DNA from: a virus
Taxonomy: Duplodnaviria; Heunggongvirae; Uroviricota; Caudoviricetes
Strand: one strand, 5' to 3'
DNA length: 64,000 nucleotides
IMG/VR virus record: IMGVR_UViG_3300047444_000299
Coordinates: 1-64,000 of that record
The translations under genes were made by a program, and so were the position numbers. Of the stretch, positions 47,385 through 63,678 are shown in pieces. The notes under the pieces are model-generated. The model was not told the DNA's origin. It did not search any database and saw only the letters and a list, made by a program, of their open reading frames with translations. The stretch's first letter is position 1, and every line of letters starts with the position of its first letter.

Positions 47385-47472
47385 TGATTGCATCAAATGC
47401 TTGACACACTCACTGTATGGTATAGAATGAGCATACACCAACCGAAACCCTGAACCATATAGGAGTTACACA
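47385..47472 (+). promoter_or_regulatory. promoter TTGACA-N16-TAGAAT + conserved leader (CACCAACCGAAAC..AGGAG)
   Basis: near-consensus hexamers, leader shared with downstream cassettes. Confidence 0.6.
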
Positions 47473-47778
47473 ATGTCTAAACGTACTGAATTCGAACTAC
47501 TCGAAGCGCATCTAACCCTACAACTGAAAAAGCATGTCGAAGCCAAGACTACCGGGAAACCATCAAAGAAAGGTTCTAAGGTAGCTCGGGACTTTATCCA
47601 AGTGTCTATGTTGTGTGGTAAGTGGTCATTAGATGGGATGCATTACATTCCGCTTGTGGTTGATGTTGAGGCGATTGATAACGCTATAGCCGAAATGGAA
47701 GCAAAGAAAGCTGCTAGGGCATTGGGTTATCAGGACCGAGATATCAAGGTCGAAGGGTTTGTAAAGGTTAGTAAGTAA
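47473..47778 (+). CDS. Lys-rich small basic protein (possible DNA/RNA-binding)
   Basis: 101 aa, strong promoter + SD. Confidence 0.5.
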   Translation: MSKRTEFELLEAHLTLQLKKHVEAKTTGKPSKKGSKVARDFIQVSMLCGKWSLDGMHYIPLVVDVEAIDNAIAEMEAKKAARALGYQDRDIKVEGFVKVSK

Positions 47779-47793
47779 CCTAAACCATTGATA

Positions 47794-47818
47794 AGCCTCG
47801 GGAAACCGGGGCTTTTTG
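47794..47818 (+). terminator. rho-independent terminator (family A)
   Basis: AGCCTCGGGAAACCGGGGCT + TTTTT. Confidence 0.8.
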
Positions 47819-47869
47819 TTATGTGATCCAATCCCTATAATAGAATCAAAAATAATTTGTTTTGGGGGG

Positions 47870-47897
47870 TTGACACCATAAAAACCCATGCCATACT
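47870..47897 (+). promoter_or_regulatory. sigma70-like promoter TTGACA-N16-CATACT
   Basis: lies about 130 nt upstream of ATG 48031. Confidence 0.45.
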
Positions 47898-48030
47898 GAC
47901 ATCACGCAAAAGGAATACAGATTTTAAAGATTTAAGGAACTTGTTAGCAGATGCACGCACTAAACGACTCAATTGCCTAGGTTCGCATTATCAACCGACC
48001 AAACCAATTTGATGTTTAGGAGATTCAAAA

Positions 48031-48507
48031 ATGCGCCAAGTATCTAAAGCTGCTCAGGAACAAACTGTTACCACAAACGTTCTGGAAACCGCTACTACCG
48101 CGTTGTCACTCGCGGAGGATGCATTGATCAAGGCTAAAGAAGCTTTGGCCGCTGCTGGGGGTTCCAAGGGCTCTAAAGGTGGTTCCAAGGGTAAGGCTGT
48201 GACCATTCAACCCCAAACCCCTGTAAACGGTTCTGATGCGTCCAAGGGATCGGCTGGACGTAACCCAAGCCCGGAACAACTCGAAATTCGATCTGCGATT
48301 ATCGAGGCTTTGCAGTCCGGGGAAATCCGATTCTTTACCATTGCCGAAGTTACCGACGCAATGAAAGCCGATAGAATCCAAACCCGAAACGCGGTTAACT
48401 ATCTGGAAGCCCAAGGGGTAGTAACCCGATACGGTGAAAAACTCCCAGAAGGTCGCGGCCAGCGGGAACTGATCTACAAGGCCGGGACCATTCCACCGGT
48501 TGCCTAA
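48031..48507 (+). CDS. putative winged-helix DNA-binding protein with Gly/Ser/Lys-rich linker
   Basis: disordered GGSKGSKGGSKGK segment; C-terminal wHTH-like region. Confidence 0.45.
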   Translation: MRQVSKAAQEQTVTTNVLETATTALSLAEDALIKAKEALAAAGGSKGSKGGSKGKAVTIQPQTPVNGSDASKGSAGRNPSPEQLEIRSAIIEALQSGEIRFFTIAEVTDAMKADRIQTRNAVNYLEAQGVVTRYGEKLPEGRGQRELIYKAGTIPPVA

Positions 48508-48527
48508 AAGATCCTGATAAGCTCTAA

Positions 48528-48551
48528 AGCCCCTTAACCGGGGCTTTTTTG
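48528..48551 (+). terminator. rho-independent terminator
   Basis: AGCCCC-TTAACC-GGGGCT + TTTTTT. Confidence 0.75.
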
Positions 48552-48562
48552 TTTTCAATAGC

Positions 48563-48590
48563 TTGACAATCTGTTTCAATGGGTTACATT
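48563..48590 (+). promoter_or_regulatory. sigma70-like promoter TTGACA-N16-TACATT
   Basis: upstream of the 48640 ORF. Confidence 0.45.
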
Positions 48591-48639
48591 ACCATATAGG
48601 AACATTCTTACATTCTCATACCTTAATCAATGGTGACTT

Positions 48640-48870
48640 ATGAAACTGTTTTATGTAGCAATCTATATGGTTGTGTGTAGTCTCCCTGTAGCGTTCCTGT
48701 CAATCTATATGGCATGGGATAGGACTCCCCCAAACCTGCGCCTAGTACAGTTGGATCAAATCCTTAGAACCGGTTCCCTGACCTATATCGGGTTGATTGT
48801 CGGTAGTCTGTTGGTGTTTCTGGTTTGGCTGATGCTTCCGGGTGACCGGGTTCGCAATGTGTATCAGTGA
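48640..48870 (+). CDS. small membrane protein (2 TM)
   Basis: 76 aa. Confidence 0.45.
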   Translation: MKLFYVAIYMVVCSLPVAFLSIYMAWDRTPPNLRLVQLDQILRTGSLTYIGLIVGSLLVFLVWLMLPGDRVRNVYQ

Positions 48871-49439
48871 ATAATTGCTGAATTTGATGGAATTCTAGTG
48901 AATTATTCTGAATGGTTCCGGGGCTGATTAGTGAATTCTGCTGTAATTTGATGCTATTGCGGGATTTGATGCATTTATTATTGCATCAAAATATTGAACA
49001 CTCACTAGGCAGCCCGAACGAATTCCCCATTTTTCTGTAACGTTTTCGATACACCGTAACGTTTTCAATACACCACATAAATTTTCGATCAATTCAATTC
49101 CCCAACCATTTCCGAACCATTCCTAAGCTGATTCTATTACCTTCCAACCATTCCAAATCTATATCTATTTTCCTGATATTCTCCCCTAAAAATATGCATA
49201 ATACCAATATACATTATGGATTTAATCAATCCCAATATATGGGATGATTTTGATTGATTTAGGCTTGCATTCTGTTCTGAATCTGCTAGGCTATTGTCTA
49301 TTCACTAATGCTTTTCTAACCTTCTAATGGTTATATGACTACTCACTTGATGGCTGGATTGATTGTTATCGGGTTGTTGCTATCCCTAACCGGATCAATG
49401 GTTTGTGGTTATGGTGATATGCCTAGGCATTCCCTTTGC

Positions 49440-50030
49440 TGGATTATTTGGTTTGATATCTCTATAGGTATGTTGGGGGTATCCCTGCTATTGCTTATTG
49501 GTTTGATGATGTTCTAGGGGTTTGATGATGTTCTATATGGTTTGGATGATATCATTGGTTTGTGATGGTTTGATGATCTATGCGGTTCAATGCATGGTTA
49601 AACATTCGTTTTGGCAGGTGGTGGTTTTTGATTCATCCTTATTGATTAGTGGTATTGCAATGTTTGTGGTATTGTGCTATGGGTTTAAATCTCTGCGGCT
49701 TGTTCGGTTGAATAGGGGTTGATATTATGTTTCGGTTGATTAATGCTTTAGAGGTTTGCGGCTGGTTTGGATTGATTTGTGTTTCTGGTTTGATTTTGGA
49801 ATCATTCCGGGTTATCATTTGATTCTACTGATTGAGGGGATTTGATCATGGTTACTATGATTCTAGGCTTCGCGGTATTGCTGGGGTTTTTGTTTCACTA
49901 TTGCCCGGTTGATACTGCTAAGGGTTGATATTCTGCTAGGTTTGGGGCGATTCTGGTGGAATATTAGCATTTAGGGTTTGCATTTAATTTTGAATTGGTT
50001 TATTGTTTGATTTTGATTTAATCACTTGAC
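49440..50030. repeat. iteron-like degenerate GGTTTGAT / GGTTGAT repeat array
   Basis: more than 20 occurrences of GGTTTGAT-like words, including tandem GGTTTGATGATGTTCTA x2. Confidence 0.6.
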
Positions 50031-50042
50031 TTGGCGAATTAC

Positions 50043-50396
50043 ATGACTCTGTATAACTCTATCAAATTGTTGGAAGCGTTCCGGGACTTTTGTTTGTCTA
50101 AGGGCAAATCGGTTATTGTTCACATTGAACCGGGTAAGGGTGCAAACTGGAATGTTTGCGCGGTTGGTCAATTCGGGGAATTCAAAAAGGTAAAGGTCGG
50201 GAATTGGGGCCGGGGCCATACAATGGCCGAAAAGCTGTCTGATGCGTTTGATTGTTTCAATAACCGTCAAACCTATCAGGATTTGTGTAAAGCTGATCGA
50301 GCCGAGGAATTGTTCCCGACATTCGATAAGCTGGCGGTTCGATTGACTGCTGATATCGAAGCATTCCAAGCCCAATGGATGAAAGCTAAAAAGTAA
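50043..50396 (+). CDS. hypothetical protein
   Basis: 117 aa. Confidence 0.45.
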   Translation: MTLYNSIKLLEAFRDFCLSKGKSVIVHIEPGKGANWNVCAVGQFGEFKKVKVGNWGRGHTMAEKLSDAFDCFNNRQTYQDLCKADRAEELFPTFDKLAVRLTADIEAFQAQWMKAKK

Positions 50397-50399
50397 TTT

Positions 50400-50457
50400 G
50401 CATTTGATGCAATCCCCTGTATACTGCTGATACCAACCAAATACAGGGGATTTGAAA
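50400..50457 (+). promoter_or_regulatory. PeSL-like cassette (stem-loop + TTGCAT-N16-TATACT + conserved leader)
   Basis: TTGCATTTGATGCAA palindrome, TATACT, CCAACCAAATACAGGGGA leader. Confidence 0.55.
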
Positions 50458-50841
50458 ATGGCTTTAGAAATATCGGCGGTATCTGATCTGTTTAACTACG
50501 GTATGACTGAAGACGGAACCCCTTTTATAGCTGAACGTTATTTCATAGAAGCCGAAGCGACTAACGGCCAGCGTTGGATTCATACCGCACGGTTTGATTC
50601 TGTTGTCAAGGTTGACGGCGGCGAAGAATGCGACGGAATGGTATTTTTTGAAGACCATCGCCAAGAAGCAAGCGATAAATGCGAAGCATTGGCCGAACGT
50701 ATCCGGTTATTCATGAATGCCGGTGGTAAGCTTGATCCTGTACACTGGATTGAATCTGATCCTAGATATGGTTCGAATGCCTATCAAACCCTAGATTCAC
50801 AAGGATATTTCCGGGATCTGGAAAGAAAAGAAGAATATTAA
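50458..50841 (+). CDS. hypothetical protein
   Basis: 128 aa after cassette. Confidence 0.5.
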   Translation: MALEISAVSDLFNYGMTEDGTPFIAERYFIEAEATNGQRWIHTARFDSVVKVDGGEECDGMVFFEDHRQEASDKCEALAERIRLFMNAGGKLDPVHWIESDPRYGSNAYQTLDSQGYFRDLERKEEY

Positions 50842-50845
50842 GCAT

Positions 50846-50870
50846 AAGCCCCTGATTCTAGGGGCTTTTT
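50846..50870 (+). terminator. rho-independent terminator (family C: AGCCCCTGATTCTAGGGGCTTTTT)
   Basis: identical at 58604, 60314 (1 mismatch) and 61886. Confidence 0.8.
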
Positions 50871-50880
50871 ATTTCTTCAA

Positions 50881-50955
50881 AATAATTGCATCAAATTGCT
50901 TGCATTGGTCTGGGGTTGGGTTATACTGACCATACACCAACCGGAGACATCAACC
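50881..50955 (+). promoter_or_regulatory. PeSL-like cassette (type a: TTGCATCAAATTGCTTGCATT-N15-TATACT + leader)
   Basis: conserved with about 30 other copies. Confidence 0.55.
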
Positions 50956-51189
50956 ATGAAATCCAAAATCAAAGTTACCGTACAAGTTGAAGACTACAAA
51001 GGCAATATGGTTGATGTTGTTGGATGCAAAAGCCTGAAACAAAATATCCACGGTAACTGGGTTGGTTATGTTGGCCGGGAACGTATCGAAAACTTTAGCT
51101 GCGCATTTGATGCCGCCCAATGGTTCCTAGGCGCTGATATGGCTGGCGACGAAATCACCGCTTTCATGACCAAACATATCATGCATTAA
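50956..51189 (+). CDS. hypothetical protein
   Basis: 77 aa. Confidence 0.5.
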   Translation: MKSKIKVTVQVEDYKGNMVDVVGCKSLKQNIHGNWVGYVGRERIENFSCAFDAAQWFLGADMAGDEITAFMTKHIMH

Positions 51190-51267
51190 TTGATGCAAAG
51201 GGGCTTGCATTTGATGTAAACCCCTGCTAGAATGATCTTACACCAACCAAATACAGGATTCGCCAAC
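51190..51267 (+). promoter_or_regulatory. PeSL-like cassette
   Basis: GGGGCTTGCATTTGATGTAAACCCC hairpin, TAGAAT, leader. Confidence 0.55.
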
Positions 51268-51579
51268 ATGAAATTTTACAGCCTCCCAGTGAACGTACAA
51301 GCTCAAGTCAAAGCCGAATGGATGGCAGGTAAGATCATGTCGGCTAATGATCGTATGCGGTACTTTGCCCAAAATGGCTACAAAACAGCGGCGGAATATC
51401 ATCAAGCTGTACTAGCCGAAGCCCCAACCGTTGAAGAACTGAAAATAATCATTATCGAATTGATGAAATCCCGGTTTATCCAACATGGTTTTGAGGACTG
51501 GATGAATCAAATCCCTAACGCGGCCATGATCTGCCGTAACTATAACGAACTGGTCATGATGACTAAGGCCGGGAAATAA
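51268..51579 (+). CDS. hypothetical protein
   Basis: 103 aa. Confidence 0.5.
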   Translation: MKFYSLPVNVQAQVKAEWMAGKIMSANDRMRYFAQNGYKTAAEYHQAVLAEAPTVEELKIIIIELMKSRFIQHGFEDWMNQIPNAAMICRNYNELVMMTKAGK

Positions 51580-51648
51580 TTTCATCAAAGGGGTTGCATC
51601 AAATGCAGCCCCTGCTATACTGATGACACACAAACAGGAGTTACCAAC
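51580..51648 (+). promoter_or_regulatory. PeSL-like cassette
   Basis: hairpin + TATACT + leader with AGGAG. Confidence 0.55.
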
Positions 51649-51861
51649 ATGCAATTGATCAAAGCGGTTGACGCGAAGCTGGGCAACATTATAGCCATGC
51701 CGGTGACTGTCCATACTGGGGTTGTCCAAATGGTTATGGGCAAACTGGTATCCCGGACGTTTGAAGACGTTGACGGCTGGATTACCTTGACCATTGAAAC
51801 CAAGGCCGGTAAGGTCGCGCATGATTATCCCTTTGATGATTTGATTGTAAAGGAGGTTTGA
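51649..51861 (+). CDS. hypothetical protein
   Basis: 70 aa. Confidence 0.5.
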   Translation: MQLIKAVDAKLGNIIAMPVTVHTGVVQMVMGKLVSRTFEDVDGWITLTIETKAGKVAHDYPFDDLIVKEV

Positions 51862-51863
51862 AC

Positions 51864-51980
51864 ATGATCGGCCAAACCCGGATAACAAAGAAAGAGTTTT
51901 ATAAACTCGGTGGTTTGTCAAATCCTAAGTTGTTTCGCAAATCCGCTAATGGTGTTTGGTCCTATTGGAAAGGGGAATAA
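51864..51980 (+). CDS. mini-protein (38 aa)
   Basis: AAGGAGG SD 7 nt upstream. Confidence 0.4.
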   Translation: MIGQTRITKKEFYKLGGLSNPKLFRKSANGVWSYWKGE

Positions 51981-51983
51981 ACC

Positions 51984-52187
51984 ATGTATAACCATAAGGC
52001 TTTGATGGGGTTGGAAGCGCGTATAAACGATGATCTAGAGGTCATTGGGATTATCACCGATTCCTATCATGAGGGGCAAACCCACTGGCTGCAAATCGAT
52101 GGCAGCTATGAACTCGCTGTGCAAGCGGTGGCGGTTGTTCTGGATCTGGGCAAGGGTACAAGCTTTGCACGTCCTAAAGCGTTCTAG
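51984..52187 (+). CDS. hypothetical protein
   Basis: 67 aa. Confidence 0.45.
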   Translation: MYNHKALMGLEARINDDLEVIGIITDSYHEGQTHWLQIDGSYELAVQAVAVVLDLGKGTSFARPKAF

Positions 52188-52199
52188 GGGCGGTTTAAA

Positions 52200-52320
52200 C
52201 GATATTCTAAACCCGGCATTGTCCGGGTTTTATTTTGTCTATTGGTATTGACAAGCTGTCGGAGAATATGAGAAAATGAATTGACGACCTATATTTGTGG
52301 TTGGCATGAAAATTTCCTCA
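52200..52320 (+). repeat. conserved intergenic element (TTGACA...AATATGAGARAATGAATTGACGACC...TTGGCAYGAAAATTTCC), copy 1
   Basis: three near-identical copies (52200, 53571, 53953). Confidence 0.6.
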
Positions 52321-52400
52321 ATTATTTGCATCAAATTGCTTGCATTCTGTTTTGATTCAATTATACTGACCACACACCAAACGAAATCGGGGGCTACAAC
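52321..52400 (+). promoter_or_regulatory. PeSL-like cassette (type a)
   Basis: as above. Confidence 0.55.
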
Positions 52401-52610
52401 ATGAACCGTAAAGAAGTTTTCCTAAAGATCAAAGCTGTCGCGGCGGTTGATGGTTTTACTAAACTTGACGTGCTGCCGATGTTCAAAGGCGTAGCACCCT
52501 CGGTTGTTGATTCGTACCTGAAAAAAGCGTATGAACTCGGGTTTATTACCCTGAATGCAGGCAACCCGCTTTGCATGTACCCGACTATCAATCTGATCAA
52601 TCTCAAATAA
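52401..52610 (+). CDS. hypothetical protein
   Basis: 69 aa. Confidence 0.5.
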   Translation: MNRKEVFLKIKAVAAVDGFTKLDVLPMFKGVAPSVVDSYLKKAYELGFITLNAGNPLCMYPTINLINLK

Positions 52611-52685
52611 TTTGATGGAAAGGGGTTGTATTTGATGCAACCCCTGTTATACTAACCACACCAAACGAAATCAGGAGTTACCAAA
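52611..52685 (+). promoter_or_regulatory. PeSL-like cassette
   Basis: GGGGTTGTATTTGATGCAACCCC + TATACT + leader. Confidence 0.55.
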
Positions 52686-53015
52686 ATGATCGTTGACCAA
52701 ACCCCAGTAATGAAAACAATCGAAATCAAGATCATAAACCAGTCCGGCGAAGTGGTGTATCATCAATCCGAAATAACTTTCGGCTTCCCGCCAGCCTTTG
52801 TCGGTGCTGTTATCGAAAAGGTTTGCGTCTGCGAATTAGACGATGATGATCATGGTGATTTGAACAACTTGCATGTAATGGGCAATATGTCAAGCCGTCG
52901 ATTCGGTAAGGATTGGGAATTTACAGTTTCGGCGGTTGTTGTTTACCCTAAATCGGTGGGGGTGGCTGATGGCGACATGCACGCCATGTCACTGGCCTAT
53001 AAAAACACCCTGTAA
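52686..53015 (+). CDS. hypothetical protein
   Basis: 109 aa. Confidence 0.5.
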   Translation: MIVDQTPVMKTIEIKIINQSGEVVYHQSEITFGFPPAFVGAVIEKVCVCELDDDDHGDLNNLHVMGNMSSRRFGKDWEFTVSAVVVYPKSVGVADGDMHAMSLAYKNTL

Positions 53016-53092
53016 TTAATTGATGTAAAGGGTTTGACATTTGATGCAAACCCTTTATACTGATCATACACCAACCGAAACAGGATTTGATC
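53016..53092 (+). promoter_or_regulatory. PeSL-like cassette
   Basis: as above. Confidence 0.55.
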
Positions 53093-53320
53093 ATGGCCGC
53101 CACTGAACTGCAAAAATGGCAAGCAATGCAAACTAAAGCACATGCCCAAGCAAATGCGGGGTTTGCATTGTCGGTTAATGTTGAAATGTTGTTGAACCAC
53201 GAACTGCCAGCCGAAAAGATGCGCGAAGAATTGGCAAAGTTTTTGGAAGACTGGAAACAGGGTTGGGATAAAGCAATTGACGATTATGTTCAAACCGGTA
53301 TTAAATTAGGGGAAATTTAA
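53093..53320 (+). CDS. hypothetical protein
   Basis: 75 aa. Confidence 0.5.
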   Translation: MAATELQKWQAMQTKAHAQANAGFALSVNVEMLLNHELPAEKMREELAKFLEDWKQGWDKAIDDYVQTGIKLGEI

Positions 53321-53321
53321 A

Positions 53322-53525
53322 ATGAAAGCAGTTTCATTCTTTACTGATGACATCAAGATCATAGCCCACACCGCAACCCATGCCGATGATATTGGCAAAC
53401 CGATATCAGTCCGGGAGTTTGCGCAAGGCCAGCCGGTAAGCCTGTACACCATGCACAATGGTGACCTGATGCTGATTCGCAATGATGCACACCGGACGTT
53501 TATCGAAGGCCCGGAAATGGTTTAA
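53322..53525 (+). CDS. hypothetical protein
   Basis: GGGGAA SD; 67 aa. Confidence 0.45.
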   Translation: MKAVSFFTDDIKIIAHTATHADDIGKPISVREFAQGQPVSLYTMHNGDLMLIRNDAHRTFIEGPEMV

Positions 53526-53549
53526 ATCAAATCCTAATGAACCCGGCGA

Positions 53550-53577
53550 AAGTCGGGTTTATTTTTGTCTGTACTAG
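53550..53577 (+). terminator. rho-independent terminator (family B)
   Basis: ACCCGGCGAAAGTCGGGT + T-tract. Confidence 0.75.
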
Positions 53578-53640
53578 TTGACACACCCCAGAAAAATATG
53601 AGAGAATGAATTGACGACCCTAAAAACATATTGGCACGAA
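53571..53640 (+). repeat. conserved intergenic element, copy 2
   Basis: as 52200. Confidence 0.6.
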
Positions 53641-53920: not shown

Positions 53921-53926
53921 GAAAAG

Positions 53927-53951
53927 AGCCTCGGGAAACCGGGGCTTTTTA
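53927..53951 (+). terminator. rho-independent terminator (family A)
   Basis: AGCCTCGGGAAACCGGGGCT + TTTTT. Confidence 0.8.
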
Positions 53952-57475: not shown

Positions 57476-57549
57476 AATCAAAATAGGGGGTTGTATTTGA
57501 TGCAACCCCTTGCCATAATAACCACACCAACCGAACCGGAGTTAACAAA
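57476..57549 (+). promoter_or_regulatory. PeSL-like cassette
   Basis: as above. Confidence 0.55.
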
Positions 57550-57840
57550 ATGTCTTTTCGCCTCCCAGCTAAAACCAACCCATTGCGCGCACTGTTTGAC
57601 CTAGAACTGTTGGTCAAGATCGAAAGCCGGGAATTGGTTGTTACCCTGTTCGAAGCTCGCGGTTCGGCTCGCCGGTTGTTTGAATCTGATATCCGCGTGC
57701 AATCGGTTGCCTTTGTCATTGTCGAGGCTAATGGAATGGTTAGCCTTATCGCGTTTGAACGGAACCGCGAACATGGTGGAACCCCAGTTCATAAAATTTT
57801 GTGGAATTTCGGCAAGGCATGGGAAACCATCAAAATTTAA
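57550..57840 (+). CDS. hypothetical protein
   Basis: 96 aa. Confidence 0.5.
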   Translation: MSFRLPAKTNPLRALFDLELLVKIESRELVVTLFEARGSARRLFESDIRVQSVAFVIVEANGMVSLIAFERNREHGGTPVHKILWNFGKAWETIKI

Positions 57841-57914
57841 TTGCATCAAAGGGGTTGTATTTGATGCAACCCCTGCTATACTAACCCCATACCAACCAAC
57901 AAAGGGGTTTGATC
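57841..57914 (+). promoter_or_regulatory. PeSL-like cassette
   Basis: as above. Confidence 0.55.
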
Positions 57915-58004
57915 ATGGGCCAGCCACACACAAACGTCGATACACTGGGACTCTGGTTAGTAACCATTCTGGCGGTATTGTCCGTGGTCTGGACGTTTAG
58001 TTAA
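57915..58004 (+). CDS. membrane mini-peptide (29 aa)
   Basis: cassette-driven; hydrophobic LGLWLVTILAVLSVVW. Confidence 0.3.
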   Translation: MGQPHTNVDTLGLWLVTILAVLSVVWTFS

Positions 58005-58041
58005 TTTCTTGTTAGCCTGACCTTTTCCCGGAGTCTATCCC

Positions 58042-58239
58042 ATGCTCAATGTCATAACCCCAGCTACAAGCTCGCCTAAGCCCCTACAAGGCGTTTTCGG
58101 TCAATACGTGGCATATCGGGCCGAACATAACCCGCTTTCGGGCCGCTGGATGGTTCTGAGCGAGTTTGACCAATGTATTCAGGCAGGTCTAAGCAAGGCT
58201 GCCGCCGAATCGCTGGCGGATACCCTTAATCAAATTTAA
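58042..58239 (+). CDS. hypothetical protein
   Basis: 65 aa. Confidence 0.4.
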   Translation: MLNVITPATSSPKPLQGVFGQYVAYRAEHNPLSGRWMVLSEFDQCIQAGLSKAAAESLADTLNQI

Positions 58240-58315
58240 ATTTGATCCAAACCCTTGACCGGTGGATTTTGTTCTGTAATAATCCACCTATACCAATCGA
58301 AACGGAATTAACACC
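58240..58315 (+). promoter_or_regulatory. PeSL-like cassette variant (TTGACC-N17-TAATAA)
   Basis: leader CCAATCGAAACGGAA. Confidence 0.45.
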
Positions 58316-58588
58316 ATGTTGACCCAAACCAGCCTAAAACATCCGGTTATGCAGGAACGAATTCTCGCCGGGTTGATCGAAGCCCAAGAAAAGGCCGAAA
58401 AGACCGGGCATGGTCGGGCGTATGTCGCGAACTCGAAAAGCAATAACATCATGCGAATCGATGTTTTCAAGCCTGACCAATTGGCATGGCTGCCTAAAGG
58501 CGGCGTCATTGTGTACGGTGCCGAGTCCCGGACCATTACCCCTATGGTCGAGGCGGCATTAGGCTCGAAGCTGTCCGACCTGATCTAA
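58316..58588 (+). CDS. hypothetical protein
   Basis: 90 aa. Confidence 0.5.
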   Translation: MLTQTSLKHPVMQERILAGLIEAQEKAEKTGHGRAYVANSKSNNIMRIDVFKPDQLAWLPKGGVIVYGAESRTITPMVEAALGSKLSDLI

Positions 58589-58603
58589 CCCGGATTCAAT
58601 CAA

Positions 58604-58630
58604 AGCCCCTGATTCTAGGGGCTTTTTTAT
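58604..58630 (+). terminator. rho-independent terminator (family C)
   Basis: AGCCCCTGATTCTAGGGGCT + TTTTTT. Confidence 0.8.
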
Positions 58631-58632
58631 TT

Positions 58633-58718
58633 CTTAAAATAATTTGATGCAACCCCTTGCAATGGTCTGAATTAGGTGTAAACTTACCCCATACCAAACG
58701 AAATCAGGAGTTAAGAAC
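58633..58718 (+). promoter_or_regulatory. PeSL-like cassette variant
   Basis: leader CCAAACGAAATCAGGAG. Confidence 0.45.
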
Positions 58719-59141
58719 ATGAAATTCGAAGCCGGTCAAACCTACGCAACCCGCTCAATTTGTGATGCTGATATGGTCATATCGATTAAGGTTGTATCGC
58801 GTACCGCCAAACGTCTCAAAACAGAAGACGGCAAAACCCTCGGGATCTATGAATATGAGGGGATCGAACAGGTTCGCCCGTGGGGCCGTTATAGCATGTG
58901 CCCAATTATCGGCGCTGATGATCTGGTAAAGGCCAAACAACCAACCCAAGCCCCGGCGGTTAAAGCCCCGGTAACCCTTAACAGCCTGATGGCCGAAGGC
59001 GAGAAACTGTTTACCCCGGATCAATTCAGCGACCTTAAAAACATGTTGGGCGGTCTGCTAGGGGTAGCGATTCAAACCAAACCAGAACCGAAACCAACCG
59101 CGCAAATTATCAACTTTGCCGACTACAAGAAAAGGGGTTGA
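58719..59141 (+). CDS. hypothetical protein
   Basis: 140 aa. Confidence 0.5.
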   Translation: MKFEAGQTYATRSICDADMVISIKVVSRTAKRLKTEDGKTLGIYEYEGIEQVRPWGRYSMCPIIGADDLVKAKQPTQAPAVKAPVTLNSLMAEGEKLFTPDQFSDLKNMLGGLLGVAIQTKPEPKPTAQIINFADYKKRG

Positions 59142-59143
59142 TC

Positions 59144-59494
59144 ATGCTGTATACATTGATGGGTTTGGTTCTGATGAATGGGGCAACAGGCCCAATGGAT
59201 ACCGTCGATACAATCGAGGGGATGCATTTGGAACAATCGGTTTGTGTGGCTCGGGCAAAGGTTCTGGCGGAGGAACTCGGGGGCGCAAAATGCCGACCTG
59301 AAAAGGAATTAGATCCTGATTCGCCATATGAAAACTCAAATACAAAAATTCAATTGCCCTCGGGCCGGGTGATTGACTTGTTCTATACTCGGGGATATTG
59401 GTTCTATCCAATGGATTTAACCGACCCTGACCGGGAGCTAGTCGAGCAATGGACCGGGTTTGTGTATAGCCGCGACGATGGCAAACGATATTGA
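59144..59494 (+). CDS. hypothetical protein (hydrophobic N-terminus)
   Basis: 116 aa. Confidence 0.45.
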   Translation: MLYTLMGLVLMNGATGPMDTVDTIEGMHLEQSVCVARAKVLAEELGGAKCRPEKELDPDSPYENSNTKIQLPSGRVIDLFYTRGYWFYPMDLTDPDRELVEQWTGFVYSRDDGKRY

Positions 59495-59564
59495 TTAAAA
59501 AGTTTGCATTGCATCAAATAGCTGTTATACTGCTAACACACCAACCGAAACAGGGAATTGAAAC
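59495..59564 (+). promoter_or_regulatory. PeSL-like cassette
   Basis: as above. Confidence 0.55.
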
Positions 59565-59816
59565 ATGAAAACCACTCGCCAAACCTTCGACCTAGTAGAC
59601 GTTAAGAAATTCGAATTTTCGCACGTTACTGGTAATGGGAATTCGGTTTATAGTTTTATCATTCAAACCCCAGCCGGTGACCTGATCGAAGGCAAGACCC
59701 AACCGGGGCTAAAACAGCACCTGTCGAGCAACCCTGAAAAGCTGGCAAACGTGGCAATTGATACAACCCCAGCCGGTCGGGTTATCATGAAAGATGCCAG
59801 CCGGGTACAAAAATAA
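59565..59816 (+). CDS. hypothetical protein
   Basis: 83 aa. Confidence 0.5.
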   Translation: MKTTRQTFDLVDVKKFEFSHVTGNGNSVYSFIIQTPAGDLIEGKTQPGLKQHLSSNPEKLANVAIDTTPAGRVIMKDASRVQK

Positions 59817-59890
59817 TTTGATTCAAGGGGTTGTATTTGATGCAACCCCTGCTATACTAACCACACCAACCGAAACCGGGAGTTTACAAA
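59817..59890 (+). promoter_or_regulatory. PeSL-like cassette
   Basis: as above. Confidence 0.55.
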
Positions 59891-60121
59891 ATGGCTAAAG
59901 TTATACGATGCAAGAAATCGACCAACCCAAATCCGCCAGCCTTTACTGTTACGTTTGCGGGCCGTCCGTTGAATGCCCCGGTTGGTGCGAATTTGAATGT
60001 TTCTTGCACGGTGTACGCGGATGATCTGGAATCGGCAAGAATCGCGATATATCAGGAATACGAACATTTGGTTCGGGTTGATATCAAACCCCGCGTTTTC
60101 ATTCCCGGCGATATATTGTAG
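59891..60121 (+). CDS. hypothetical protein
   Basis: 76 aa. Confidence 0.5.
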   Translation: MAKVIRCKKSTNPNPPAFTVTFAGRPLNAPVGANLNVSCTVYADDLESARIAIYQEYEHLVRVDIKPRVFIPGDIL

Positions 60122-60147
60122 GACTCAAACCAAAACCCCGCGAACAA

Positions 60148-60309
60148 ATGCGCGGCGTGTGTCCTGAGAATGGCCGGGATGATAATAACACCGCGCAGGT
60201 TCGGGCCTGTTACGGTGACCACGGGGAATGCTGGTTAGATCAAGATTTGCATGGCGTCAAGTATTGGAATCAAGAAGACTTGATTTTGATTAAAGCGGCG
60301 GACGAATAA
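60148..60309 (+). CDS. hypothetical small protein (53 aa)
   Basis: no SD and no cassette; weak. Confidence 0.25.
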   Translation: MRGVCPENGRDDNNTAQVRACYGDHGECWLDQDLHGVKYWNQEDLILIKAADE

Positions 60310-60313
60310 GCTA

Positions 60314-60339
60314 AGCCCCTGATCCTAGGGGCTTTTTAT
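60314..60339 (+). terminator. rho-independent terminator (family C variant)
   Basis: AGCCCCTGATCCTAGGGGCT + TTTTT. Confidence 0.8.
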
Positions 60340-60340
60340 T

Positions 60341-60424
60341 TTCAATTATTTGCATCAAATCGCTTGACCATGATTCAAAACACTGTAAACTGACCATATC
60401 GAAACCAAAAACAGGAATTCAAAC
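60341..60424 (+). promoter_or_regulatory. PeSL-like cassette variant (TTGACC-N18-TAAACT)
   Basis: as above. Confidence 0.45.
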
Positions 60425-60838
60425 ATGACTACCCAAATCGAATTGATAGCCGAAGCTGTAGCCAATGCCGCCGAAGGTTGCGAAGCGTTCAATGTCAAGA
60501 TCAAAGAACTGTTTCCGACCTTTCTAGCTAAAGCTCGCCCATACAAATGTTTGGGTGATAATGTGACGGTTGATTTTTACAACGTCGCGGATAAATCGGA
60601 ATGCGCAAGCGGTATCCTGTTAAATGCAACCGGCCAAATGCGTTTTATGATGCATCTAAACGGCAACTCGGCGCATAATGTAGCTGCATCTTTTGATGTT
60701 GAATTGCTTAGTTGGTCGCACCACTTGCGAAATGCTGGCGTGAAATTCCGCAAGATCAAAGGCAAAACCCCAGCCGAAGCCCTGCAAAAGTTGGTGGTAT
60801 GGTTCGAAAAGAACGCGGATCTAATCAAATCGGTCTAA
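60425..60838 (+). CDS. hypothetical protein
   Basis: 137 aa. Confidence 0.5.
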   Translation: MTTQIELIAEAVANAAEGCEAFNVKIKELFPTFLAKARPYKCLGDNVTVDFYNVADKSECASGILLNATGQMRFMMHLNGNSAHNVAASFDVELLSWSHHLRNAGVKFRKIKGKTPAEALQKLVVWFEKNADLIKSV

Positions 60839-60840
60839 TT

Positions 60841-61188
60841 ATGGACAACGAACTGTTAGCCCCGTGTGGCAAATGCCCACGGGTTACCGATAAAGAATCG
60901 GGCTATATCGCTGGGGCGTCTGTAATGCTGTTTAAGACGTTCAACGGTTCAAGCCGATACGTTTATCAGGTTCAAGGCCGAAACGTCGCTGTGATGCTTA
61001 TAGCGAGCCATAGCAGCCAATTAGGCCGGGTTGTATCGGTGTTTTGCATGGGGGATTATGCGAACGCTGGATTGTTCCGAAAGTTGTGGTATGTTGCGGC
61101 AAAAGACTTTAAACATTTGCGGTTAGGGGATGAACTTTCAACCTGTCCGCAACTAGCCGAATTAATTCATGAAATCAAGGGGATTTAA
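60841..61188 (+). CDS. hypothetical protein
   Basis: 115 aa. Confidence 0.45.
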   Translation: MDNELLAPCGKCPRVTDKESGYIAGASVMLFKTFNGSSRYVYQVQGRNVAVMLIASHSSQLGRVVSVFCMGDYANAGLFRKLWYVAAKDFKHLRLGDELSTCPQLAELIHEIKGI

Positions 61189-61190
61189 CC

Positions 61191-61412
61191 ATGTGCAAAC
61201 AATTTATTAAAAATTCAGATATGCGCGAACTAGTCAAGTTTGCCGAAGGGATCGGCTATACTGTTGAACTAACCAAAAACAAACATTTAAAGTTTTTGCT
61301 ACCGGGTAACTCCCCAATTTTTACCAGTTCCACCCCTTCGGATTATCGAAGCTGGACCAATTGCAAAGCTCGACTAAAACGCCTTGTGTCCGGCTCGGGG
61401 GTTGCGGCATGA
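61191..61412 (+). CDS. hypothetical protein
   Basis: 73 aa. Confidence 0.45.
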   Translation: MCKQFIKNSDMRELVKFAEGIGYTVELTKNKHLKFLLPGNSPIFTSSTPSDYRSWTNCKARLKRLVSGSGVAA

Positions 61413-61591
61413 TCGAACGCAATAGGGCCGCATCCGGGCGCGTAGGGAACGTGGTTTTTGGTCTGGCTTGTGTAGGTGATGGGTTGGTACGGGTTTTGTC
61501 GCTGGGGTTCCTACACACCCGACTAACCCTGACCGTTTCCAAATACCAGACAAAACGCCATATTATGCGGCTCAAATCCAGCCGAAAATAA
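61409..61591 (+). CDS. hypothetical protein
   Basis: ATGA overlap; 60 aa. Confidence 0.35.
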   Translation: MIERNRAASGRVGNVVFGLACVGDGLVRVLSLGFLHTRLTLTVSKYQTKRHIMRLKSSRK

Positions 61592-61667
61592 TTTGATGCA
61601 ACCCCTTGACGTGGCTTGTGTGGCCTGTATACTGACCACACACCAACCAAAAACAAGGAATTCAAAA
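61592..61667 (+). promoter_or_regulatory. PeSL-like cassette variant (TTGACG-N17-TATACT)
   Basis: as above. Confidence 0.5.
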
Positions 61668-61880
61668 ATGGCAAACCATATCCAGAACCTGCAAACACAA
61701 GTTGACCAACTAACCACACAAGTTAACTTGGCGGATGATAGCCTGCAAGCGTTTCGCGCATATCTGGCGTCACCTAAGTTTACAGGCGACGGGGCTGGCG
61801 AGCTACAAGGTTACATATCGATTCAAGACGTTGAACACCGTCTAAGCGAAATTTGGCGGGAGTTGCACGGCCTGAATTGA
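61668..61880 (+). CDS. hypothetical coiled-coil protein
   Basis: 70 aa. Confidence 0.5.
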   Translation: MANHIQNLQTQVDQLTTQVNLADDSLQAFRAYLASPKFTGDGAGELQGYISIQDVEHRLSEIWRELHGLN

Positions 61881-61885
61881 ACGAA

Positions 61886-61911
61886 AGCCCCTGATTCTAG
61901 GGGCTTTTTCT
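61886..61911 (+). terminator. rho-independent terminator (family C)
   Basis: AGCCCCTGATTCTAGGGGCT + TTTTT. Confidence 0.8.
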
Positions 61912-61920
61912 TTTCTTTAA

Positions 61921-62001
61921 AATAATTGCATCAAATGCTTGCATTGCATCAAAACCCCTGCAATAATACAGGCACACCAACCAACAACGGGGAACACCAA
62001 C
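61921..62001 (+). promoter_or_regulatory. PeSL-like cassette (type a)
   Basis: as above. Confidence 0.5.
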
Positions 62002-62334
62002 ATGAATCAGCACCCAATGGCAAAAGCATACGTTTCGGCCTTTGTCAAGAATGGCGGCAAGAAATTTAAACACAAATTCAATCTGTACGGGTTGGATCAA
62101 ATCATAACCTTCGGATATCGTCGGTTTGCTTTTAACCTGAAAACAGTGTACGGCACTGCCAGCTATGAACTGGAATTCATTCCCCAGTGCGCAACCCGTC
62201 CGGGCGACTGTGATGAAATTTATCTAAGCCCATACCCGAATTTTGGGGATTGGTTAGAATGCGATTCAGTTGCAAAGGCTGAATATGAGGAATTTATGGG
62301 GATTGTATCCAAGACAATTGGAATCCGAAAATAA
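62002..62334 (+). CDS. hypothetical protein
   Basis: 110 aa. Confidence 0.5.
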   Translation: MNQHPMAKAYVSAFVKNGGKKFKHKFNLYGLDQIITFGYRRFAFNLKTVYGTASYELEFIPQCATRPGDCDEIYLSPYPNFGDWLECDSVAKAEYEEFMGIVSKTIGIRK

Positions 62335-62410
62335 TTTGATAGAAAGGGGTTGCATTTGATGCAATCCCTGTTATACTGCTAACACACCAACCGAAACAGG
62401 GGATTCACAA
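62335..62410 (+). promoter_or_regulatory. PeSL-like cassette
   Basis: as above. Confidence 0.55.
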
Positions 62411-62611
62411 ATGGCTTTCAAACTCACTAAAACCCGGTTCACTGGCCTAGCGTATTATCAGCAACAGCCGGGCTTGTGGCGGATTGCGGACATACATGAT
62501 TCACCGTTAAACGCGCAGGGGTTGCCGCGTGCGGTTGGTCCCCAGTACCAGACCAAATCGGAATTACTGGCGGATCTGGAAAGATACGCAAAAGAAAGCT
62601 GGGGCTATTGA
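62411..62611 (+). CDS. hypothetical protein
   Basis: 66 aa. Confidence 0.5.
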   Translation: MAFKLTKTRFTGLAYYQQQPGLWRIADIHDSPLNAQGLPRAVGPQYQTKSELLADLERYAKESWGY

Positions 62612-62790
62612 GAATGATTTTTAAAGATACTTTTATCGACAAAAAGACCGGCAAACAATTTACCGTCGAAATTCAATTAGACCAGATTGAAATTGCCAAA
62701 ATTATGGCACAACGGGCGATTGATTCACAAGCTGGCCTGTCGGTATCGCTAAACGGTAATATCAGGTGCCGGGTTATTAAAAAGCTCTAA
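62608..62790 (+). CDS. hypothetical protein
   Basis: ATGA overlap; 60 aa. Confidence 0.4.
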   Translation: MRMIFKDTFIDKKTGKQFTVEIQLDQIEIAKIMAQRAIDSQAGLSVSLNGNIRCRVIKKL

Positions 62791-62866
62791 AATCAAAAAT
62801 AGGGGTTGTATTTGATGCAACCCCTGCTATACTACTGGAAAGCCAACCAAAACAGGGAATCGAAAA
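62791..62866 (+). promoter_or_regulatory. PeSL-like cassette
   Basis: as above. Confidence 0.55.
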
Positions 62867-63082
62867 ATGGTCATGAAATTAGCCCAAATCATAGAAGCAA
62901 TCAAAAACAACCATCTGGAAACAGTTAAAAAGGAATTGGTCCGGTATGGGGATATTTTGGAATCGAACGATTGGGAAAGCGAGAAAGGTTGTCACCGCCG
63001 CTATATCATCAAACGGCTGGATTCGGTTTTTGTGGTGGCAATGTTGAACGGTGATACCCTCACAATTAAACAACAAAACTAA
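62867..63082 (+). CDS. hypothetical protein
   Basis: 71 aa. Confidence 0.5.
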   Translation: MVMKLAQIIEAIKNNHLETVKKELVRYGDILESNDWESEKGCHRRYIIKRLDSVFVVAMLNGDTLTIKQQN

Positions 63083-63091
63083 TTGACAACC

Positions 63092-63134
63092 AACCCGGCC
63101 TAGACTATGATTGGTTCTAGGCCGGGTTGTTTTA
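63092..63134 (+). terminator. rho-independent terminator (13-bp stem AACCCGGCCTAGA/TCTAGGCCGGGTT)
   Basis: long perfect hairpin followed by GTTTTA. Confidence 0.65.
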
Positions 63135-63180
63135 CCGGGAGACAAACACCCCGGCTGCCTGTTAGAATTTTTCCAAAAAT

Positions 63181-63263
63181 TTTAAAATAATTGCATCAAA
63201 TGCTTGCATTGCATCAAATACATGTCATAATGTCCCTACACCAACCGAAAAGAGGGTTACAAA
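63181..63263 (+). promoter_or_regulatory. PeSL-like cassette (type a, -10 CATAAT)
   Basis: as above. Confidence 0.5.
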
Positions 63264-63599
63264 ATGGAACTGCAAAACATAGCTAAGCTGGCGTTTGATG
63301 CAATGGGGCCAGCCGGTCACCATGCAAGGGTTGGGCGCGGTTGTGGTCGGGTTTACGTTGAACTGTTTACAGACCAATATAAAAGCATTCGCAAGGGTTC
63401 GGTGGTTGCCAAGGCTTTCGAGAAAGCCGGGTTTAAAATGTTCCCACGTCCAAACCATACCGGCGTGCAAATTTATATCGGTTACGACAATTCGACCGGG
63501 ATCGAATGGAATAAGGCCGAAGCTGTAGCCGCTTCCCTCAAGGCTAACGGGTTGGGCGAACATGGTTTAAAATGCACCGTTAGCGGTGACGGTGATTAA
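63264..63599 (+). CDS. hypothetical protein
   Basis: 111 aa. Confidence 0.5.
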   Translation: MELQNIAKLAFDAMGPAGHHARVGRGCGRVYVELFTDQYKSIRKGSVVAKAFEKAGFKMFPRPNHTGVQIYIGYDNSTGIEWNKAEAVAASLKANGLGEHGLKCTVSGDGD

Positions 63600-63678
63600 A
63601 ATTTGATACAAAGGGGTTGTATTTGATGCAACCCCTGTTATACTGACCCTACCAAATACGAATTTAGGAGTTTCAAAA
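63600..63678 (+). promoter_or_regulatory. PeSL-like cassette
   Basis: leader CTACCAAATACGAATTTAGGAG. Confidence 0.55.

Follow-up and report, generated by a model that had tools for sequence, protein, structure and literature searches.

A short leader recurs upstream of small genes in a 64,000-nucleotide stretch of viral DNA (positions 1 to 64,000 of IMG/VR record IMGVR_UViG_3300047444_000299; hereafter, the window), which is, judging from the proteins it encodes, part of a T4-like phage genome. On balance, we think it probable that this leader comprises the initially transcribed sequence and the 5' end of early promoter cassettes of the PeSL (promoter-early stem-loop) type, located in the hyperplastic region of the phage genome. 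An earlier sequence-only reading had proposed that the leader is a translational operator or RNA motif, but it did not recognize in it the 3' portion of a repeated cassette that is already known. The conserved transcribed core of the leader is an under-described sub-element of the PeSL cassette. Our interpretation draws on the anatomy of the cassettes, on the anchoring of the core to the -10 element, on its conservation across related phages, on an insertion/deletion (indel) junction that falls within the leader, and on the wide occurrence of related transcript starts.

To locate the modules, we read the sequence and took as anchors those -10-like hexamers behind which a C/A-rich stretch lies. 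Thirty complete modules, each composed of a promoter, a leader, a Shine-Dalgarno (SD) sequence, and an ATG, run from 47423 to 63679 on the + strand, and a 31st, at 63963, is cut by the end of the window; all 31 sit among small open reading frames (ORFs) at 47.4-64 kb. Their general form is a -10 hexamer, six variable bases, A(C/T)ACCAAC(C)(G/A)AAA, an SD sequence, and an ATG. The sequence-only reading had described an almost invariant leader on about 25 genes at 47430-63678. The repeated leader is real and this span is exact for the first and last complete copies, but the count is about 30, and near-invariance holds for the first eight or nine bases, ACACCAAC(C), whereas the following GAAAC and the spacer between SD and ATG vary. 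The two variants reported there also exist, CCAAACGAAATCAGGAG at 52660 and 58693 and CCAACCAAATACAGGA at 50432 and 51242. An exact 18-mer, CACCAACCGAAACAGGAG, occurs once (57003), and with three or fewer mismatches it has eight copies, all on the + strand at 53-62.4 kb, compared with 0.02 expected. The coding sequences behind the leaders were said to be unrelated, and indeed the 30 downstream proteins (29-157 amino acids) have no mutual BLASTP similarity at E<0.01.

The assignment to the T4-like phages rests on ORFs at 1-19 kb, which include homologues of the T4-type gp41 helicase, gp61 primase, topoisomerase II subunits (gp39 and gp52), UvsX, and DexA, with further matches to RnlA, RNA ligase 2, and NAD-salvage enzymes; T4 gp41, gp61, gp39, UvsX, and DexA likewise find tblastn matches in the window. 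A megablast search with window positions 50-58 kb against cultured phages gave no match, and the phage was placed via its proteins. Among cultured phages it is closest to Pseudomonas phages Astolliot and Milchi (74% identity in the topoisomerase large subunit), all other records falling below 60%. Pattern searches of IMG/VR yielded four uncultured relatives: UViG_3300046810_000101 (loci L119, L120, and L126), which is syntenic with the window at 75-85% nucleotide identity, UViG_3300005534_000011 (L123 and L161), UViG_3300027986_000023, and UViG_3300042013_000056 (L158). When used alone as a query, the 14-mer ACACCAACCGAAAC returned more than 100 IMG/VR loci, and the two multi-hit loci inspected (L014 and L062) were chance matches in Thr/Pro-rich coding repeats; longer patterns were needed. 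The clade-wide statistics given below cover 82 modules from five related contigs.

The conserved block begins at the predicted transcription start. Within the window, CCAA starts 9 nt (22 modules) or 7 nt (6 modules) past the -10 element, with a standard deviation of 0.8 over these 28 modules, whereas the distance from the core to the ATG is variable (standard deviation of 2.7). In the first module, whose leader is unusually long (38 nt), the SD lies 12 nt further off and the core still stands beside the -10 element. The C+A fraction in the interval from -28 to -14 relative to the start codon is 0.86 in genes that carry a module, compared with 0.50 in 18 crude ORF calls at 47-64 kb that lack a module of their own, mostly promoter-less internal genes with their own SD. 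The corresponding value is 0.54 in the 91 genes at 1-47 kb. Since the core is tied to the -10 element rather than to the ATG, and since internal genes do without it, the block belongs to the promoter end of the leader. Its information content is 1-2 bits per position, which equals or exceeds that of the -10 hexamer and drops to approximately 0-0.3 bits past the ATG. Conservation beyond the SD itself, as originally claimed, is thus genuine, and it persists across five related genomes with a divergence of about 40% at synonymous sites.

Across the clade, the predicted +1 position, taken six positions past the -10 hexamer, is A in 95% of modules and is preceded by a pyrimidine in 89%, so that the block combines a fixed distance from the -10 element with a purine at the predicted start and a pyrimidine just before it, as expected for an initially transcribed sequence. 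In 42 of the 82 modules, the start reads exactly ACACCAAC, while others read ACACCAAA (8 modules), ATACCAAC (4), or ATCGAAAC (4); by comparison, the discriminator takes 42 different forms and the -10 hexamer takes 10. From +1 to +12, A makes up 52%, C 36%, G 9%, and T 4%; TG steps hardly occur, and CG usually appears first at +9. Leaders are 24-28 nt long in 67 of the 82 modules. We noted that the minority start ATCGAAAC (window 60386-60425; also L119 and L123), of a type common in RB16, T1-like, and other phages, follows a -10 element that reads TAAACT or TAGACT, and that the window copy, like its orthologue in L119, has a -35 element close to the consensus, TTGACC, and lies behind a terminator. 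We considered NAD capping of the transcripts and dropped the idea in view of the pyrimidine at -1; in CapZyme-seq experiments, efficient capping reportedly favors a purine at that position.

Conservation extends well beyond the leader, which is one part of a repeat of approximately 90 bp whose upstream 60 bp or so take in the -10 element, the -35 element, and a hairpin or AT-rich block. Each cassette opens with AT-rich sequence (for example, TAAAATTTGAT or AAATAATT) in which the gene before it ends at its stop codon, followed either by a hairpin that holds the -35 element or by TTGCATCAAAT repeats that come after a true terminator. Next come the -10 element, which is often extended (TGnTATACT), six variable bases ending in a pyrimidine, the A at +1, CACCAAC(C)(G/A)AAA, and finally the SD and ATG, separated by N5-9. 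The window's -10 hexamers are chiefly TATACT (the commonest), TAGAAT, CATAAT, and TAAACT, with A2 and T6 invariant and TGn often preceding; the sigma-70-type -35 element, located 16-17 bp before the -10, is TTGCAT, TTGACA, or TTGACC. Because TTGCAT fits only three of the six positions of TTGACA, a simple promoter scan under-calls the modules. A GGGG...CCCC hairpin of 10-14 bp, with a predicted folding free energy (dG) of -13 to -21 kcal/mol, spans the -35 element and the spacer in 16 of the 31 modules, such that TTGCAT lies in the 5' arm and the 3' arm abuts TGnTATACT. Its stem sequences vary among relatives, and yet pairing is retained. The remaining modules carry TTGCATCAAAT direct repeats, and several are found directly behind canonical terminators.

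This architecture closely resembles that of PeSLs, which two papers define as intergenic repeats of approximately 100 bp in the hyperplastic regions of T4-type genomes (Arbiol 2010, PMC2839356; Comeau 2014, PMC4122927). A PeSL so defined extends from the upstream stop codon, set in AT-rich sequence, through a sigma-70-like early promoter accompanied by a GGGG...CCCC stem-loop, to the SD and ATG of an ORFan. The stem-loop lies before, between, or over the promoter boxes, and a subclass with the hairpin over the promoter has been described (PMC2839356). Recombination between PeSL copies gives rise to indels and mini-circles (PMC2839356; PMC4122927), and the crossovers of RB49 mini-circles were mapped, according to the same descriptions, between the -10 element and the SD/ATG. 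The element lists in these papers name the AT-rich region, -35, -10, stem-loop, SD, and ATG, and the passages concerned make no mention of the transcribed core as a conserved element.

Judged from sequence alone, which is how the likeness is known here, the window modules display every PeSL property that sequence can address. Each has a predicted sigma-70-like promoter facing the downstream gene, and a stable stem-loop occurs in or near the promoter of 16 of the 31 modules, the others often lying behind terminators. An upstream stop codon sits in an AT-rich stretch, the 3' end supplies the SD and start codon of a small gene, and the modules cluster in the hyperplastic region of a T4-type genome. 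Lastly, indels relative to a close relative are bounded by these elements, with a crossover inside one of them. The PeSLs of RB49/phi1, PST/T4, and nt-1/KVP40 share the repeat of approximately 90-100 bp with its AT-rich stop, promoter, GGGG...CCCC stem-loop, and small ORFan, as well as the clustering and the repeat-bounded gene indels with a junction between the -10 element and the SD; those of RB49 also have a closely related leader, acacccATACCGAAACGAA. The window array differs from known PeSLs in that it is denser (31 modules in 17 kb) and comes from another clade, one related to Pseudomonas phages, in that the -35 element TTGCAT lies within the 5' arm of the hairpin, and in that about half of the modules have TTGCATCAAAT direct repeats after a true terminator and no hairpin.

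The indels come to light when the window is compared with L119, with which it shares a colinear backbone. Gene content differs mostly by genes that have a module of their own: at least nine module-bearing window genes are absent from L119, and vice versa, although this per-gene count is approximate and derives from crude gene calls. One such case is a 224-bp cassette that comprises the 3' part of one leader, the ORF at 56803-56964, and the upstream half of the next module. L119 matches the module at 56766 on the left and the gene at 57029 on the right, and the switch occurs inside TATACTGAyCATACACCAACC. We therefore conclude that the 224-bp cassette is present only in the window.

Transcript starts related to those in the window, of the form A(U/C)(A)C(C)GAAAC(GA), follow a -10 element and a C-rich discriminator in several other phage groups. 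They are found in the PeSLs of RB49 (TATAAT acaccc ATACCGAAACGAA..GGAGAATCAAA ATG), in RB16 and Slopekvirus PMBT1 (TATATT acacac ATCGAAACGAAAC), in Vibrio phage nt-1 (TATTAT agctac ATCGAAACGAGA), and in the T1-like phages AYM and BEK7, where six bases separate ATCGAAACGAAAC from a -10-like hexamer, CTATTAT in AYM and TACATT in BEK7. The Stenotrophomonas siphovirus BUCT626 (TTTAAT acaccc ATCGAAACGAAC) and Pseudomonas phage PIP (TATAGT tacacc ATACCGCAACGCAC) provide further examples, as do the annotated start of T7 promoter A3 (TACGAT gtaccac|ATGAAACGACAG) and the start of T7 promoter A1 (TACAGCC|ATCGAGAGGG). These two T7 early promoters share with the window a conserved sequence from +1, a fixed distance to the -10 element, and a C-rich discriminator ending in a pyrimidine, and their starts resemble both the RB16-type ATCGAAACGAAAC and the window's GACCAC|ACACCAACCGAAAC. 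The strong phage early promoters that the host polymerase reads also include the T5 promoters studied by Kammerer et al. 1986 (as cited in PMC5961368). A 36-nt RB16-type query matched 1964 places in 693 phage records, and no host copy of the RB16-type promoter-leader was found among 5,426 E. coli genomes at E<=10. Moreover, CGAAAC is enriched 20- to 67-fold in the context of a -10 element, leader, and SD in the window, L119, RB49, RB16, and PMBT1. We know of no phage-encoded regulator that is common to the T4-like, T1-like, T7, and other groups with related starts, and a host-level function, involving RNA polymerase or the ribosome, is therefore the economical reading.

The published logos of T4-like early promoters end at position 0, and all that is noted there is that C is favored from -3 to -1. 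Literature searches with the strings CGAAACGAAAC and ATCGAAACGA returned nothing on phages, and we found no description of the motif in the open literature. Closer to the window, drift in Milchi and Astolliot has given the consensus TATACT GATCAC ATCAAAACGAAA, and a second, short type, ACTCGAAACCAAAGGAG, also occurs. In some leaders of these two phages (L127 for Milchi, L128 for Astolliot), the start and the SD are separated by a small conserved hairpin, AAGGCAAAACGCCTT, which the window modules lack. We also observed that the leader of T4 gene 39 (L132; TATAAT attccc GAAACCAAACGAGGA) resembles the short Milchi/Astolliot type; the other T4 early leaders inspected do not.

If the leader is indeed the initially transcribed end of an early promoter cassette, the host sigma-70 RNA polymerase would initiate at the A at +1, with the pyrimidine at -1 and the A at +1 fixing the start site. 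A start that is T-free and G-poor, with almost no TG or CG steps before +9, may then give both a fixed start and fast promoter clearance. YG steps near +5/+6 slow promoter escape in vitro, and promoter output can shift more than 10-fold when the initially transcribed sequence is altered (PMC5961368). A short, unstructured, U-free 5' end common to every inserted ORF could further ensure uniform expression whatever gene is carried, and cassettes would spread and swap via homologous recombination, for which the stretch from the -10 element through the leader may serve as one crossover site. The start site, the early timing, and the effects on promoter clearance and translation are thus what we infer from the arrangement.

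Several considerations weigh against this interpretation. The +1 position has been deduced from spacing together with the Y(-1)R(+1) rule, and the argument on promoter clearance draws on in vitro results from E. coli that were obtained with other promoters. T4 mostly does without a related start and yet has very strong early promoters, so the start is not required for strength. The connection between ACACCAACCGAAAC and AUCGAAAC is founded on a shared CCGAAAC at the same position and on the four clade modules with ATCGAAAC, and the resemblance could in part reflect composition. The start seen most often in the window, ACACCAAC, is unlike the AUCGAAAC/AUGAAAC type, which is carried by only one module here and by 4 of 82 in the clade. 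The SD and AUG are only slightly more often unpaired behind the natural leaders than behind random ones (probability of 0.59 versus 0.57; Wilcoxon p=0.004), which is a small effect. Finally, an A/C-rich, YG-avoiding rule does not need an exact ACACCAAC, and this invariance hints at a sequence-specific recognition that lies outside this account. The downstream regions of T5 promoters, for comparison, are A/T- and purine-rich, not C/A-rich.

The exactness of ACACCAAC leads to a bolder proposal, which we regard as possible but doubtful. The first 8-14 or so transcribed bases might constitute an unrecognized sequence-specific element, ACACCAAC(C)GAAAC in the window, that is read by a conserved host component at the early promoters of many unrelated virulent gamma-proteobacterial phages. 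Elsewhere, it would take the putative form A(U/C)(A)C(C)GAAAC(GA), as seen in RB49, RB16, Slopekvirus, nt-1, the T1-like phages, the Stenotrophomonas siphovirus, and T7 A3. The reader would be RNA polymerase during initial transcription, a 5'-end sensor, or protein S1. Were this true, the element would exceed a merely 'easy to transcribe' composition, and it could help early promoters out-compete those of the host or underlie their later shut-off.

A role for the core in translation, where a C/A-rich unstructured 5' end would act as a ribosome standby site, a contact for protein S1, or an enhancer, seems unlikely to us. A leader of 24-28 nt would fit entirely inside the ribosome footprint, the slight gain in SD/AUG accessibility points in the same direction, and ACA and GGA motifs occur in S1 ligands and some enhancers (PMC1702504). 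However, the standby or enhancer function put forward by the sequence-only reading is difficult to reconcile with a core whose distance is fixed to the -10 element and not to the SD or ATG, as the first module illustrates, and internal genes, which lack a core, presumably rely on their own SD for translation. The core is also almost devoid of U, whereas classical S1 and enhancer sites are A/U-rich, and the accessibility effect is small.

Nor does pairing with 16S rRNA rescue this idea. We rejected a 16S-complementary enhancer when the best duplex with E. coli 16S rRNA (-12.5 kcal/mol) proved no better than those of shuffled sequences (-12.4 +/- 1.7 kcal/mol). The lone 7-bp match, between CCAACCG and 16S positions 1524-1530, could not pair jointly with the SD, as it falls on the wrong side of it, and involves nucleotides that are presumably already paired, within helix 45. 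The RB16 and RB49 cores have no complementarity to E. coli 16S rRNA and score worse than shuffles; the 3' end of 16S rRNA is conserved among gamma-proteobacteria. Structure analysis of the leaders, which had been recommended as a check, revealed weakly structured transcripts in which the core is unpaired, and an Rfam search of 46-64 kb found no family that reaches its gathering score.

A third explanation holds that the core is functionless and either hitch-hikes within a cassette that PeSL shuffling or gene conversion copies and homogenizes by recombination, or provides a mere patch of homology for that recombination. We consider this rather improbable, although several observations fit it well. 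The whole module of approximately 90 bp is repeated, and sub-families couple a particular -10 element, discriminator, and leader, as with TAGAAT-GATCTT-ACACCAACCAAATA at 51228 and 54640. Half of the orthologous genes carry a different upstream class in the window and in L119/L120, the indel junction falls in the -10/leader stretch as in the RB49 mini-circles, and the consensus differs among clades, as seen for Milchi and Astolliot. Copying alone, however, does not predict that the core should be far more constant than the discriminator or the -10 hexamer, and related starts also appear in phages without PeSL arrays (T7 A3, the T1-like phages, and BUCT626).

Sequence divergence argues in the same direction. 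Leaders are 77% identical between orthologous genes, 64% between non-orthologous genes of different genomes, and 66% between paralogous modules within the window. The similarity of the last two values indicates that there has been no genome-specific homogenization since the phages diverged. Rare variants (AAGCCAACC, ATCGAAACC, and ATACCAAyCG) are common to orthologues and thus have been inherited with their gene. For 14 orthologous gene pairs between the window and L119/L120, leaders differ at 24% of aligned positions compared with 40% of third codon positions, and these values, together with the unrelated ORFs, bear out the original judgment that recent duplication does not explain the conservation. 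Taken together, these data indicate that the core has been held by constraint or by very old copying, with cassettes swapped occasionally.

It is highly improbable that the core serves a phage-encoded factor as an operator or processing signal, be it a site for a RegA-like repressor, an RNA site for a cofactor of a RegB-like endonuclease, or a DNA site at +1 to +9 for early-promoter shut-off. Both T4 RegA operators and RegB/S1 sites are, like the core, unstructured single-stranded elements near the ribosome binding sites of many early mRNAs; the invariance of ACACCAAC surpasses compositional need, the mechanism of T4 early-promoter shut-off is incompletely understood (PMC3014915), and GGAG, the RegB cleavage motif, is the SD in 11 of 30 modules. 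RegA operators, however, are A+U-rich and overlap or directly precede the AUG (PMC3014915), whereas the core is 88% A+C and 4% T, essentially U-free, tied to the promoter, and positioned upstream of the SD, 19-25 nt before the AUG. The RegB/S1 site is an 11-nt single-stranded sequence, GGAGRAYARAA, with no requirement upstream of GGAG (PMC1702504), which is precisely where the core lies, and the UUAC or UUUC that follows GGAG here mismatches at least at positions 5-6. We therefore set aside the RegA operator and the RegB/S1 site as candidates, and with them the translational repressor and RNase processing signal suggested by the sequence-only reading. T4 RegA has no tblastn match in the window, although the usual regA neighborhood (gene 62/44/45) lies outside it, and no RegB-like match was found among ten candidate window ORFs, the rest of the genome being outside this search. 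The lack of an Rfam family and of structure, and the same family of starts in T4-like, T1-like, T7, and other phage groups with no known common regulator, likewise disfavor an operator or processing signal.

The individual modules, all on the + strand, are distributed along an array that nine predicted terminators of the rho-independent type, also on the + strand (47793-47814, 48526-48547, 50846-50867, 52209-52230, 53536-53563, 55888-55915, 58602-58625, 60313-60334, and 61883-61908), split into what would be short transcription units from 47793 to 61908. Module 1 (47363-47475) has the -10 element TAGAAT at 47423-47428, a predicted +1 at approximately 47435, core ACACCAACCGAAAC, and its ATG at 47473. 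Module 2 (50360-50460) has TATACT at 50420, core ACCAACCAAATAC, an ATG at 50458, and a partial hairpin, TTTGCATTTGATGCAATCCCC, upstream. A 19-nt segment at 49729-49747, inside a small ORF, is 84% complementary to the leader of module 1 at 47430-47448 (GTTTCGGTTGATTAATGCT versus AGCATACACCAACCGAAAC), which is probably due to chance.

Among the modules with a hairpin, those with a TATACT hexamer are given here with their span, hairpin dG, -10 position, core, and ATG: module 5 (51556-51651; -18.5; 51616; shortened core ACACAAAC; 51649), module 7 (52588-52688; -17.2; 52648; ACCAAACGAAAT; 52686), module 8 (52996-53095; -13.2; 53056; ACACCAACCGAAAC; 53093), module 12 (54983-55083; -18.6; 55043; ACACCAAACGAAAT; 55081), module 13 (55297-55392; -19.0; 55357; short core ACCAACTAAGGAG; 55390), module 16 (56706-56805; -16.8; 56766; ACACCAACCGAAAC; 56803), which forms the left edge of the 224-bp indel, module 19 (57817-57917; -16.5; 57877; ATACCAACCAACAA; 57915), module 23 (59793-59893; -16.5; 59853; ACCAACCGAAAC; 59891), module 27 (62312-62413; -15.9; 62372; ACACCAACCGAAAC; 62411), module 28 (62768-62869; -17.0; 62828; AAGCCAACCAAAAC; 62867), whose variant core recurs in the orthologous module of L119, module 30 (63579-63681; -16.5; 63639; ACCAAATACGAATT; 63679), and module 31 (63903-64000; -15.2; 63963; ACCAAATACGAATT), which the window end cuts before the ATG. 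The same details for hairpin modules with TAGAAT are, for module 4, 51168-51270, -18.1, 51228, ACACCAACCAAATAC, and 51268, and for module 11, 54580-54680, -20.7, 54640, ACACCAACCAAATA, and 54678. CATAAT is used by modules 15 (56322-56422; -17.5; 56382; ACACCAACCGGAAA; 56420) and 18 (57454-57552; -17.6; 57514; ACCAACCGAACC; 57550).

Non-hairpin modules with TATACT, for which we give span, -10 position, core, and ATG, are module 3 (50862-50958; 50922; ACACCAACCGGAG; 50956), located after the terminator at 50846-50867, module 6 (52302-52403; 52362; ACACCAAACGAAAT; 52401), with TTGCATCAAAT...TTGCAT and an extra consensus promoter unit upstream at 52248-52345, module 9 (53632-53731; 53692; ACACCAACCGAAAG; 53729) with an extra promoter unit at 53578-53675, module 10 (54030-54131; 54090; ACACCAACCGAAAC; 54129) with another at 53965-54075, module 17 (56930-57031; 56990; the exact 18-mer at 57003-57020; 57029), which is the right edge of the indel, and module 22 (59466-59567; 59526; ACACCAACCGAAAC; 59565). 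Modules 14 (56036-56136; 56096; ACACCAACCGAAAC; 56134) and 29 (63166-63266; 63226; ACACCAACCGAAAA; 63264) are non-hairpin modules with CATAAT, and module 26 (61902-62004; (C)AATAAT at 61962; ACACCAACCAACAAC; 62002), also of this type, comes after the terminator at 61883-61908. Module 20 (58218-58318) has the -35 element TTGACC, the extended -10 element TGTAATAAT at 58275-58283, core ATACCAATCGAAAC, and an ATG at 58316, while module 25 (61568-61670) has TTGACG, TATACT at 61628, core ACACCAACCAAAAAC, and an ATG at 61668. TAAACT is found in module 21 (58619-58721; 58679; ATACCAAACGAAAT; 58719), after the terminator at 58602-58625, and in module 24 (60326-60427; 60386; 60425), where the -35 element TTGACC, after the terminator at 60313-60334, precedes the minority start ATCGAAACCAAAAAC.

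A second conserved unit stands before some of the non-hairpin modules, at 52235-52345, 53565-53675, and 53952-54075, with a weaker copy at 55925-56075. It contains a consensus promoter, TTGACA-N18-TG-extended GAAAAT/TAAAAT, with a predicted transcript start near TGACGACC, and approximately 30 nt past that start, TTGGCAYGAwwATTTCC bears a loose likeness to a sigma-54 -24/-12 element. These units could be tandem promoters or could encode a small RNA.

The 11-mer TTGCATCAAAT, or ATTTGATGCAA in the opposite orientation, has 90 copies with no more than one mismatch in the whole window, compared with 3.6 expected. Each module contains two copies approximately 35 bp apart, in opposite orientations in hairpin and non-hairpin modules, and these span 47388-63951. 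By count of the hit list, 37 further copies, five of them exact, occur at 1-47 kb (for example, at 4305, 7651, 8250, 15249, and 26523); most of these fall within genes, and most have the ATTTGATGCAA orientation. Such a distribution suggests a candidate genome-wide DNA-level site, possibly for a protein.

Other features of the window lie outside the array. With one mismatch or fewer, ATTCTGTTTA has 23 copies compared with 5.7 expected, at 2584, 23228, 30534, 35330, and approximately 19 more places at 1-47 kb, and in two cases (2584/2613 and 23228/23257) it is located 19 nt before a TAnAnT hexamer; it may be the upstream box of a second, perhaps middle, promoter class. Two adjacent ORFs, at 24633-25466 and 25448-26059, find their match in the PHROG family of T7 gp0.7-type protein kinases, inhibitors of host transcription (E=3e-4 and 1e-12, respectively), which to our knowledge are not typical of T4-like phages. 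NAD salvage genes at 16410-19014 encode a nicotinamide-nucleotide adenylyltransferase/Nudix fusion and a nicotinamide phosphoribosyltransferase, a pair that KVP40-type phages also carry. Two non-coding stretches, 46870-47400 and 48880-49330, have a strong strand bias; the former includes a C-rich run, CCCCTCCCCACCCCCGGCACCCCCACCACACC, at 47060-47095, and the latter has short direct repeats such as GTAACGTTTTCrATACACC (two copies). They are followed by T-rich small ORFs at 49335-49970 that resemble membrane peptides (AT skew of -0.18). The transition from the conserved genes to the early array is marked by this region.

In T4-type phages, the turnover of small host-takeover genes, both gain and loss, is attributed to PeSL cassettes. 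To these, the window adds an unusually dense and regular array from a poorly sampled, Pseudomonas-phage-related clade, along with a clean cassette indel whose junction falls in the leader. Within the cassette, it is the first transcribed bases that vary least, less than the -35 element, the -10 element, or the hairpin, and starts related to them also follow early promoters in unrelated phages. If this pattern reflects a real requirement of the host machinery for transcription or translation, then the core would be a simple determinant of early-promoter strength, would permit better prediction of phage early promoters and their start sites, and could provide a context-insulating promoter and 5' untranslated region part for Pseudomonas and enterobacteria.

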